60,695 nt of DNA from an uncultured Candidatus Saccharibacteria bacterium (GCA_964608605.1 CAZSOS010000001.1:55193-115887); one strand, 5' to 3'; shown: positions 13,853-57,363, numbered from the stretch's first letter. The notes: a model not told the origin generated them from the sequence alone. Made by a program: numbers and translations.

Positions 13853-13993
13853 ATGTCTGACAGAAAATTCCCCGAAGGATTCTATTGGGGTGAGACGAGG
13901 CAGTGCCTCGTCGCAAGGCCGGACTGGAGCGGAGTGGAAGGAGGCGGGGTCGCGCAAATTTTTATTAAATTTCTTAATAAAAATTATGTGTGA
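13853..13993 (+). pseudogene. Displaced original 5' end of the GH1 gene (MSDRKFPEGFYWG) running into the inserted element
   Basis: ATG 6 nt after TATAAT; the first 13 codons match the GH1 FPxxFxWG motif; stops at TGA 13991-13993. Confidence 0.75.
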
Positions 13994-14046
13994 CCGGCTA
14001 CGGCCTCAAAGTATATGAAACAATTTCCAAAAAATTTTTACTGGGG
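13891..14046 (+). mobile_element. 156-bp folded insertion supplying a replacement gene start
   Basis: Bounded by TATTGGGG / TACTGGGG. Hairpins at 13894-13912 and 13948-13995. Ends in a diverged copy of the GH1 N-terminus. Confidence 0.6.
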
Positions 14047-32895: not shown

Positions 32896-33240
32896 ATGAG
32901 ACTGGGAGCTTTGGGTGTAATAGCAGCGGTTCTTTTCACGGGTATGCTGGCGATCGGCGGCCAAGCCAGTGCGGACGACAGCGTTTCCGGTCCGTCCCCC
33001 GAGACCATCTGCGGAGACCGGGAGCAGATGGTGACCGCGCTCTTCAGTGAGTATCGCGAGGAGTCAAAGGCGGTCGGACAGGTCGACCAGAACGCGATCC
33101 TCGAGATTTTCGTTTCCAACGAAGGCACGTGGACCGTTCTGGCCACTGGTACCGACGGCTTGTCATGTCTGGTCGCCAGCGGCGACGGATGGGAGGATAT
33201 ACCTCCGCTGGCGCCGAAGGTAGCCGGAGTCGAACATTAA
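32896..33240 (+). CDS. Small secreted protein with a Cys pair
   Basis: GAAGGAGG RBS, signal peptide, CGDR...LEIFVS..GTWTVL...GLSCLVASG. Confidence 0.7.
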   Translation: MRLGALGVIAAVLFTGMLAIGGQASADDSVSGPSPETICGDREQMVTALFSEYREESKAVGQVDQNAILEIFVSNEGTWTVLATGTDGLSCLVASGDGWEDIPPLAPKVAGVEH

Positions 33241-33300
33241 ATTAAAAAGGCCGCCCCTTCGGGGCGGCCTTTATCGTTACCAGACCTAGTTCTCTTGCAA

Positions 33301-33452
33301 AGGCGGAGAGAATTTCTCTCATTACATGAGCAGTACACCTTTTGGATATTTTGCTCCAAGTTTTCGCAAAATACCTCAAAAGGTCTTCGAATCTCACGAA
33401 ACAGTCTCCCAGACTGTTTCTTCCGTCCACCTGGACTCACTTCGTTCGTCTG
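33301..33452 (-). mobile_element. ~155-bp folded element downstream of tRNA-Ser, ending in a degenerate copy of the tRNA T-arm/acceptor
   Basis: Direct repeat AGGCGGAGAGA at 33301-33311 and 33456-33466; internal hairpins. Confidence 0.55.
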
Positions 33453-33539
33453 CGGAGGCGGAGAGATTCGAACTCTCGAAGCCCTTTCAGGCTTACCACG
33501 ATTCCAGCGTGGCGCACTAGACCACTATGCGACGCCTCC
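33453..33539 (-). tRNA. tRNA-Ser(GGA), CCA not encoded
   Basis: Acceptor GGAGGCG/CGCCTCC, anticodon arm CCACG-CTGGAAT-CGTGG, long variable arm, GTTCGAATC T-loop, discriminator G. Confidence 0.97.
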
Positions 33540-33643
33540 GTATATTGATATTGCGCTCGACATAATAGCGCAAAGTGGGCGGTTTACCAACTGCGGCGGG
33601 CGCGGCCGAAGGCCGCGCCCTGTTATAATTCAACCACGATGAA

Positions 33644-55517: not shown

Positions 55518-57363
<1,846 letters not shown>

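Follow-up and report, generated by a model that had tools for sequence, protein, structure and literature searches.

The tRNA-Ser(GGA) gene of an uncultured Candidatus Saccharibacteria bacterium is followed by a folded segment that ends in a second copy of the last part of the gene, and this raises the question of what kind of element occupies the site and how it came to resemble its neighbor. The locus was analyzed within a stretch of 60,695 nucleotides (GCA_964608605.1 CAZSOS010000001.1:55193-115887), hereafter the window, and positions are counted from its first letter. The 155 bp behind the gene constitute one complete, old copy of a Patescibacteria-wide family of non-coding elements, here termed "gene-end cassettes".

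Organization of the tRNA-Ser(GGA) locus

The host gene (33452-33539, minus strand) was recognized both by ARAGORN and by Rfam (RF00005, 54.9 bits), and a consensus scan predicts a promoter-like site, TTGGTA-17-TATTAT, upstream of it (33562-33590, minus strand). An 11-mer, TCTCTCCGCCT, is found in the gene at 33466-33456, where it comprises the last base of the T-loop, the 3' strand of the T-stem and the start of the acceptor 3' strand, and again at 33311-33301, at an offset of 155. These are its only two matches in 60.7 kb. A chance repeat was ruled out, since two matches were reached in none of 100 shuffles (0.06 expected). The likeness between the tRNA end and the distal copy is wider than the 11-mer, following the pattern GAGAG..CTCTCCGCCT..GCA, and the ends align as GAGAG-TTCGAAT-CTCTCCGCCTCCGCA in the tRNA and GAGAG-AAATT-CTCTCCGCCTTTGCA in the distal copy. 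The 160-nt stretch behind the gene has a folding energy of -55.5 kcal/mol (z = -4.6 relative to shuffles).

Read in the direction of the gene, the module consists of the gene end X(1), a spacer, an antisense copy of X (X'), a core and a direct copy of X, X(2). X(1) (33451-33472, minus strand; TTCGAATCTCTCCGCCTCCGCA) spans the T-loop, the T-stem 3' strand, the acceptor 3' strand and 2 nt of trailer, and is the functional copy among the duplicated segments of the tRNA-Ser end. It is followed by the spacer (33432-33450, minus strand; GACGAACGAAGTGAGTCCA), in which a terminator scan detected no terminator. X' is in two parts: the first (33420-33431, minus strand), read off the sequence and conforming to a family-wide pattern, is antisense to the acceptor 3' strand but has decayed (GGTGGACGGAAG, where an intact copy would read GGAGGCGGAGAG), and the second (33386-33395, minus strand; GAGATTCGAA) is the exact antisense of the T-loop and T-stem 3' strand. 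Hairpin A, identified from sequence and fold (GAAACAGTC-TGGGA-GACTGTTTC; 33398-33420, minus strand), splits X' at the acceptor/T-stem junction. This small, sequence-conserved hairpin (AACAGTCTGGGAGACTGTT) often divides X' in the same way in other members of the family and is missing in some copies.

The core begins with hairpin B (33337-33384, minus strand), an AT-rich stem of 18 pairs with a bulged A in UUGAG that is supported by covariation and by a covariance-model match, and continues with a conserved GUAC linker and hairpin C, CUCA-UGUAA-UGAG (33318-33336, minus strand), also supported by covariation. X(2) (33296-33317, minus strand) is formed by AGAAAT and TCTCTCCGCCTTTGCA and is a direct, drifting copy of X(1). 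Its T-arm-like hairpin, GAGAG/CTCTC, is partly a coincidence of the hairpin C 3' strand with the copied T-stem, and other copies are without it. All sequence strings quoted in the original prediction are present on the minus strand behind the gene, and its view of the locus as a 155-bp insert bounded by a repeat of the tRNA 3' end is supported, the distal repeat being a copy of that end; what it described as a degenerate T-arm/acceptor at the far end is X(2). The antisense copy of the tRNA end within the module and the spread of the family go beyond that prediction.

Two simpler identities of the segment were considered and rejected. A decayed tandem tRNA or tRNA-like gene is contradicted by the lack of any ARAGORN or Rfam match in the module and by the left arm, which is a contiguous antisense of the 3' strand that keeps the extra A of the T-loop complement and not a tRNA with an internal deletion. 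A small protein gene, as the 62- and 67-aa ORFs of the minus strand might suggest, does not agree with conservation that resides in paired stems, core lengths of 48-99 nt and indels that are not multiples of three.

The first terminator after the tRNA gene, an intrinsic-terminator-like hairpin with a T run, is predicted at 33246-33272 (minus strand), beyond X(2), with none between the gene and X(2). The module therefore lies between a promoter-like site and the first terminator, both of them predictions, as it would if it were a cis-acting RNA of the 3' trailer that is transcribed with the tRNA and whose copies reflect function, not selfish spread. In such an RNA, X' would have two possible pairing partners, the tRNA 3' end and X(2), and would act as a switch or imitate a tRNA minihelix. 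It could steer termination, stability or the maturation of the 3' end by RNase P or RNase Z. This is the main rival of the interpretation favored below, and we consider it a serious possibility, if not a probable one. In many other copies of the family the spacer is itself a terminator-like hairpin with a T run, placed between the gene and X', which speaks against a role of this kind.

An ORF of 114 aa on the opposite strand (32896-33240, plus strand), with a hydrophobic, signal-like N-terminus, converges on the module and shares the bidirectional terminator with it; an exact copy of its product was not found in the protein collection. The proteins of the genes neighboring the module recovered, by exact-match look-up, one 1.2-kb contig that ends at the tRNA.

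Distribution of the type-A family

The source genome (0.65 Mb in 5 contigs, 92.5% complete) contains five further copies detectable by BLAST of the stretch, with 75-80% identity and including one identical pair. With a 401-nt query, matches to the element part were obtained in 38 of 41 related genomes, their number varying from 0 to ~21 among congeneric genomes, a variability that argues against a cis-acting RNA of the trailer. Many contigs of related MAGs terminate in a copy.

A wider search of GTDB species representatives with a 23-nt degenerate core pattern listed matches that include more than 120 stretches. A covariance model was built from 21 copies, the window copy being part of the seed (R1, defining the type-A core), and it matches the window at 33395-33310 over the full model length (100.9 bits, E = 1e-23). 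R1 found the element in 78 of 80 searched loci (L030-L109, from species-representative genomes), with 99 independent copies between them, and in one IMG/VR locus. Among the matches listed, all confirmed copies belong to Patescibacteria, both in Paceibacterota/Parcubacteria groups and in MAGs labeled as Saccharibacteria, and three pattern matches outside CPR were not confirmed by R1. The window stretch has the complete type-A core, that is, hairpin B with its bulged A, GUAC, and hairpin C with UGUAA, in the order common to the family. It is also placed as other members are, co-oriented behind a gene, with a direct copy that is exact over 11 nt, an antisense copy exact over GAGATTCGAA and a decayed acceptor part.

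No match to a known family was found. In Rfam 15 only the tRNA passes the gathering threshold, and the matches to the module obtained in E-value mode all lie far below gathering score. INPHARED phages and PLSDB plasmids gave no match to the element. Identity as a phage attP was rejected, the sole IMG/VR match resembling a chromosomal CPR tRNA-Ser cluster. Full-text searches of the literature and recent preprints on non-coding elements yielded no description of the cassette family. Type-A cassettes thus apparently represent a widespread, undescribed family of small folded non-coding elements in CPR/Patescibacteria.

Conserved fold and locus-specific copies of the host-gene end

The fold of the core is conserved across the 99 copies, with 92.2% of cells paired and changes on both sides in 23 of the 24 pairs. 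Its covariation score of 0.466 was not reached by any of 500 shuffles (0.109 in shuffles), slid controls showed only 36-55% pairing, and covariation was evident in the 21-sequence set as well. Among pairing cells, G.T combinations number 49 and A.C combinations 10, in an alignment fitted to a model that itself favors G.U pairs; this asymmetry indicates that it is the upstream gene's sense strand that folds. While the stems covary, the unpaired nucleotides (the bulged A, GUAC and UGUAA) are conserved across orders.

Orientation is strict. Within 300 nt upstream, 43 of the 99 copies have a tRNA gene on the same strand and none has one on the opposite strand. The upstream hosts include 24 tRNA anticodon types, ftsZ, rplK and one more gene end. 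The strict co-orientation (43 to 0), the wobble asymmetry between strands and the cross-order conservation of unpaired nucleotides within covarying stems are all features that a cis-acting RNA would explain, and the conserved nucleotides fit a functional RNA as well as they fit a recognition site.

The flanks of the core, in contrast to the core itself, are specific to each locus. At 34 of the 59 tRNA-linked loci an antisense copy of the last 14 nt of the tRNA was found with an exact run of at least 8 nt, and at 34 of 59 a direct copy was found by the same measure, compared with ~2% when a tRNA was set against the module of another locus. A direct repeat of at least 10 nt is present in 33 of 94 copies, the repeats ranging from 8 to 35 nt in length. 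X' and X(2) pair with each other; the resulting stem repeats the acceptor/T-stem helix of the neighboring tRNA, and the core occupies its loop. This closing helix is locus-specific too: its median energy is -11.7 kcal/mol with the own flanks and -8.8 kcal/mol with those of other copies, and values of -15 kcal/mol or lower occur in 32% and 8% of cases, respectively. Matched X' and X(2) also occur behind hosts that are not tRNAs, namely ftsZ, where the repeat has the maximum length of 35 nt and includes the stop codon, rplK in two genomes, and one further gene end.

We consider the module to be, with a probability of roughly one half, an insertion cassette that is non-autonomous and adopts its fold as a single strand. 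The mobile unit would be [X-spacer-X'-core], entering through a crossover or copying event within the terminal segment of a gene; the gene would retain an intact end, and the displaced end would stay behind the cassette. The order X, spacer, X', core, X is the exact outcome of a crossover in X between the gene and such a unit. The presence of an antisense copy inside the unit, in turn, is intelligible only if X' and X pair. Such pairing, along with a covarying fold that is specific to one strand, argues for an intermediate folded from a single strand, with a stem that imitates the target duplex. The recognized form would be the sense-strand fold, as ssDNA or as RNA, comparable to integron attC and to the folded attP of CTXphi, with an enzyme acting in trans. 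The occurrence of one core family on at least 24 anticodon types and several protein-gene ends suggests that the stem is copied for each new target and not inherited; templating of this kind would allow a single core family to occupy dozens of gene ends.

The reconstruction of the acceptor/T-stem helix by X' and X(2) would suit a cis-acting RNA equally, and so would the situation in one congener, a single case, where X' follows a changed tRNA T-stem (GGGA/UCCC) and X(2) keeps the old state. When X(1), X' and X(2) were compared with one another, in local alignments that are biased, there were 0 cases in which X(2) and X' had changed together away from the tRNA. Function as an RNA and mobility are compatible, and both can apply to the same element.

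A related sequence was noticed in a genome of the same order at tRNA-Ser(GGA) (L024:1595-1730), where no type-A core is present and the trailer carries a palindrome, GATAGTTCGAATCCCGCA...TGCGGGATTCGAACTATC. This palindrome is a T-arm-like X / X' pair and may represent an empty or precursor form of a module.

A second core type in the same architecture

The window contains another repeat-bounded insertion, at GH1, in which TATTGGGG at 13883 recurs as TACTGGGG at 14039, an offset of 156 bp. As originally predicted, the layout at both sites is the same: two copies of the target enclose a small hairpin followed by an AT-rich hairpin core. The cores, however, belong to different families. A covariance model built from 12 copies of the second type, with the GH1 copy left out (R2, defining type B), matches the GH1 insertion at 13917-13997 (plus strand; 43.1 bits, E = 7e-11) and finds no match at the tRNA-Ser flank, whereas R1, with filters off and E up to 10, has no match at GH1 13891-14046. 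MAFFT produced no real alignment between the two segments, and each covariance model finds its own element only. Membership of the two insertions in one core family is ruled out by these reciprocal models. The proposal of one minimal element family that hits tRNA ends as well as coding starts consequently holds for a class of architecture and fails for a single sequence family. Both offsets, 155 and 156 bp, are real, and their near-equality carries no weight, since offsets of the modules in this genome span 155 to ~217 bp; the shared layout does count.

Type-B cores have the signature GCCGGAGCG, hairpin, GGGGTCG-G, hairpin, YGTGACC, and the type-B module of GH1 is located within a coding gene, at its 5' end. 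That position, and the use of the same slot by two unrelated cores, count against a cis-acting RNA of the tRNA trailer. The two types also meet physically. In another congener a contig carries, in one array, tRNA-Gly, a type-B unit and two identical type-A units, each of these with its own terminator and X'. A chimera was found at L135:3470-3560. It is type A up to the middle of hairpin C, with hairpin B and an AUAC linker, and from there continues directly as the second half of type B (GGTCGCGGG...TGTGACC).

At two loci (L056 and L049) type-A cores are nested inside type-B hairpins. Nesting of this sort would be in keeping with a REP/REPIN- or PATE-like repeat moved by a HUH single-strand transposase of the RAYT or IS200/IS605 TnpA type that recognizes the hairpins. 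The stems derived from the target would then arise incidentally, from insertion into or beside pre-existing hairpins. The strand-specific fold and the position of copies at gene 3' ends, after terminator hairpins, would agree with such a repeat. On the other hand, IS200/IS605 insertion makes no 10-35-nt target copies that are direct plus inverted, and we regard this explanation as unlikely.

Modules in the source genome and signs of turnover

The inspection of tRNA 3' flanks proposed in the original prediction revealed that the same layout recurs behind many tRNA genes, in this genome and in related ones. ARAGORN annotates 34 tRNA/tmRNA genes in the source genome. A direct copy of at least 9 nt of the last 16 nt of the tRNA lies within 400 nt downstream of six of them, with none in the upstream control, and 8-nt downstream copies were found for three more genes. 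Modules with either core are carried by at least 10 of the 34 genes, about a third, and this partial occupancy again weighs against a general role as a trailer RNA. Type-A cores occur behind Ser(GGA), Ser(GCU) and Asn, diverged type-A cores behind Trp and Arg(CCG), and a weaker type-A copy of ambiguous placement near Pro(GGG). Type-B cores occur behind Tyr, Gly(GCC), Gly(UCC), Arg(GCG) and Leu(CAA), the last with an additional type-A core that adjoins the type-B core. Beside tRNA-Pro(GGG), at C2:61105-61178, ARAGORN reports a 74-nt tRNA-Ser with anticodon ACU, unusual both in its anticodon and in its length, which is short for a serine tRNA.

Insertion of one module into another is seen at the orthologous tRNA-Ser(GGA) gene of a congener (L010:1595-1850), where the hairpin A loop contains a second, intact type-A-like core, and decay is seen in the older one (GUAU, UAUAA and broken pairs). 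The window spacer is kept in this orthologous module, which indicates that the tRNA-Ser(GGA) module is older than the split of the two species. The nested insertion is without target duplication, as would suit a repeat moved by a HUH transposase, and one simple mechanism therefore does not fit all copies. Tandem arrays, nesting and decaying copies are, in turn, difficult to explain by a cis-acting RNA.

Among the points that count against an insertion cassette are the divergence of copies within the source genome and the occurrence of the window copy in a congeneric species as well, which give no sign of recent movement at this site. In the metagenome contigs that were scanned, the predicted empty-site junction and the locus terminator were both absent, and in a BLAST of flanks among the loci, aimed at empty sites, other copies dominated the matches; no empty site, excised circle or strain-level difference in presence was found by these searches.

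A larger insertion was found behind tRNA-Asn (C1:268400-274900; L003, L004), in the form of a 6-kb AT-rich accessory island that encodes DUF2726, a PIN_8 PIN-like protein, glyoxalase, TspO, cupin, EamA and two unknowns. The island is flanked by two type-A modules that are identical over ~190 bp, and beyond these lie older degenerate copies of the tRNA end; it looks like the result of accretion at one site. We take this island, the nested insertion, the tandem arrays and the direct copies behind six tRNA genes as signs of mobility. The tRNA-Asn before the island was missed by ARAGORN.

This island, with its flanking modules and the older tRNA-end copies, brings to mind a conventional origin, in which a prophage or island entered the T-loop of tRNA-Ser by means of a tyrosine integrase, left an attL/attR duplication and subsequently lost its interior until 155 bp remained. 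The direct repeat of the tRNA 3' end, starting from the T-loop as in att sites, would be accounted for. Random deletions, however, would not be expected to spare one and the same covarying core and layout of ~155-217 bp at more than 100 loci; an antisense copy of the target is no part of integrase att sites; and the ends of protein genes are targeted too. Together with the absence of matches in phage and plasmid collections, the only IMG/VR contig being CPR-chromosome-like, this makes the integrase scar very improbable.

Search for a mobilizing enzyme

The cassette encodes no recombinase, and none was recognized by Pfam among the ORFs of the tRNA-Asn island. Homologues were sought by phmmer with single sequences (XerD, lambda Int, gamma-delta resolvase and IS608 TnpA), queries that could miss very distant recombinases. 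None of the four has a homologue detected in this way in the source genome, in which a RecA control was found at 1.8e-121. XerD, lambda Int and resolvase likewise had no detected homologue in the 935 kb that surround the copies, where a single IS608-TnpA-like ORF was present, in L033. The latter was rejected as mobilizer, its ends being unlike the module.

These results count against the insertion cassette and bear on two of the alternatives as well. The integrase scar is weakened by the lack of an integrase in the island, in the source genome and in the 935 kb of flanks; the original designation of the segment as an integrative element is sound as far as an inserted, repeat-bounded segment is meant, and weakened in its classical sense. 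A HUH-moved repeat is likewise disfavored, given that no TnpA or RAYT homologue was found in the source genome and that the only IS200-like TnpA, in L033, lacks module-like ends. The absence of a Xer-type recombinase would be notable in itself, if profile searches agree.

Relation to known elements

Tyrosine integrases reportedly use att sites in tRNA genes, with the T-loop as one of their sublocations. The cassettes resemble tRNA-targeting integrative elements in being inserted toward the 3' end of a tRNA gene that stays intact, in a direct repeat whose start is in the T-loop, in tandem units and in the presence of an island at tRNA-Asn. They differ from them in the lack of an integrase, a size of ~155-217 bp, the antisense copy of the target, a covarying single-strand fold, and the use of one core on at least 24 anticodon types and on protein-gene ends.

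Integron attC sites, attP(+) of CTXphi and IMEX at dif are folded single-stranded recombination sites, in which structure is conserved and the enzyme acts in trans. As in these, structure and not stem sequence is conserved in the cassettes, one strand folds, the elements are small or gene-less, and arrays form at one site. The covariation and the G.T versus A.C counts support, as in attC, an imperfect palindrome whose structure is conserved and of which one strand folds. In contrast, no IntI or Xer homologue was found and, in the sequences read, no GTTRRRY or RYYYAAC pair bounds the units; furthermore, the stem copies the target, and many gene ends are used in place of one attI or dif.

Like REP/BIME/REPIN, ERIC, Correia, RUP, Rickettsia palindromic elements and PATEs (IS200/IS605-derived), the cassettes are short, non-coding, hairpin-forming, multi-copy and non-autonomous, and often found at gene 3' ends. 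Unlike these small repeats, they have an outer stem that is locus-specific and derived from the neighboring gene in antisense and sense, a strict orientation, and copies that are diverged with covariation instead of near-identical bursts. Nor do they share the constant features of MITE and REP elements, namely invariant terminal inverted repeats or an invariant palindrome, and a short target duplication of set length; their outer stems vary, and their direct repeats are 8-35 nt long.

Group IIC introns insert after terminator or attC stem-loops, and the cassettes share with them a target that is a stem-loop at a gene end and a position just 3' of the hairpin, but have a core of only ~70-90 nt, with neither intron domains nor a reverse transcriptase, and give no intron match in Rfam. 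A further likeness is to tRNA-like structures and minihelices, such as the tmRNA domain and the bacterial Y-RNA module, in that X' and X(2) rebuild a stacked acceptor/T-stem helix. The helix of the cassettes differs in being copied from the neighboring gene and in forming at ftsZ and rplK ends as well, with no encoded CCA and no ARAGORN or Rfam match.

Taken further, the insertion cassette may be part of a retargetable platform without protein genes of its own, in which interchangeable cores (type A, type B) are closed by a stem that duplicates, as a double strand, the last 10-35 nt of the target, this folded mimic serves for an insertion that leaves the gene unbroken, units build up into arrays that sometimes enclose kilobases of cargo, and a host enzyme does the work. 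Such a platform would be integron- or CTX-like, with tRNA T-arms and other gene ends as landing sites. We offer this broader proposal tentatively and consider it rather doubtful as a whole.

If the cassettes move as proposed, they would provide compact insertion of DNA at a chosen gene end without damage to the gene, the target being set by a short stem and not by a protein, which would be of interest to mobile-element biology and to genome engineering. If they are RNA elements, they would form a major level of 3'-end biology, for tRNAs and mRNAs alike, that has gone unrecognized in a vast group of uncultivated bacteria whose genomes are very small. Whichever reading applies, many of the "orphan tRNA fragments", unusual palindromes and broken contigs of CPR assemblies are explained by the cassettes, and family models of the Rfam type would improve annotation.

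One more palindromic region of the window deserves mention. At 56059-56136 (24% GC), GAAATTC and GAATTTCGAA repeats are interleaved with their complements, and R1 gives weak matches on both strands (16.9 and 12.6 bits). This region looks like a separate array of short palindromic repeats.
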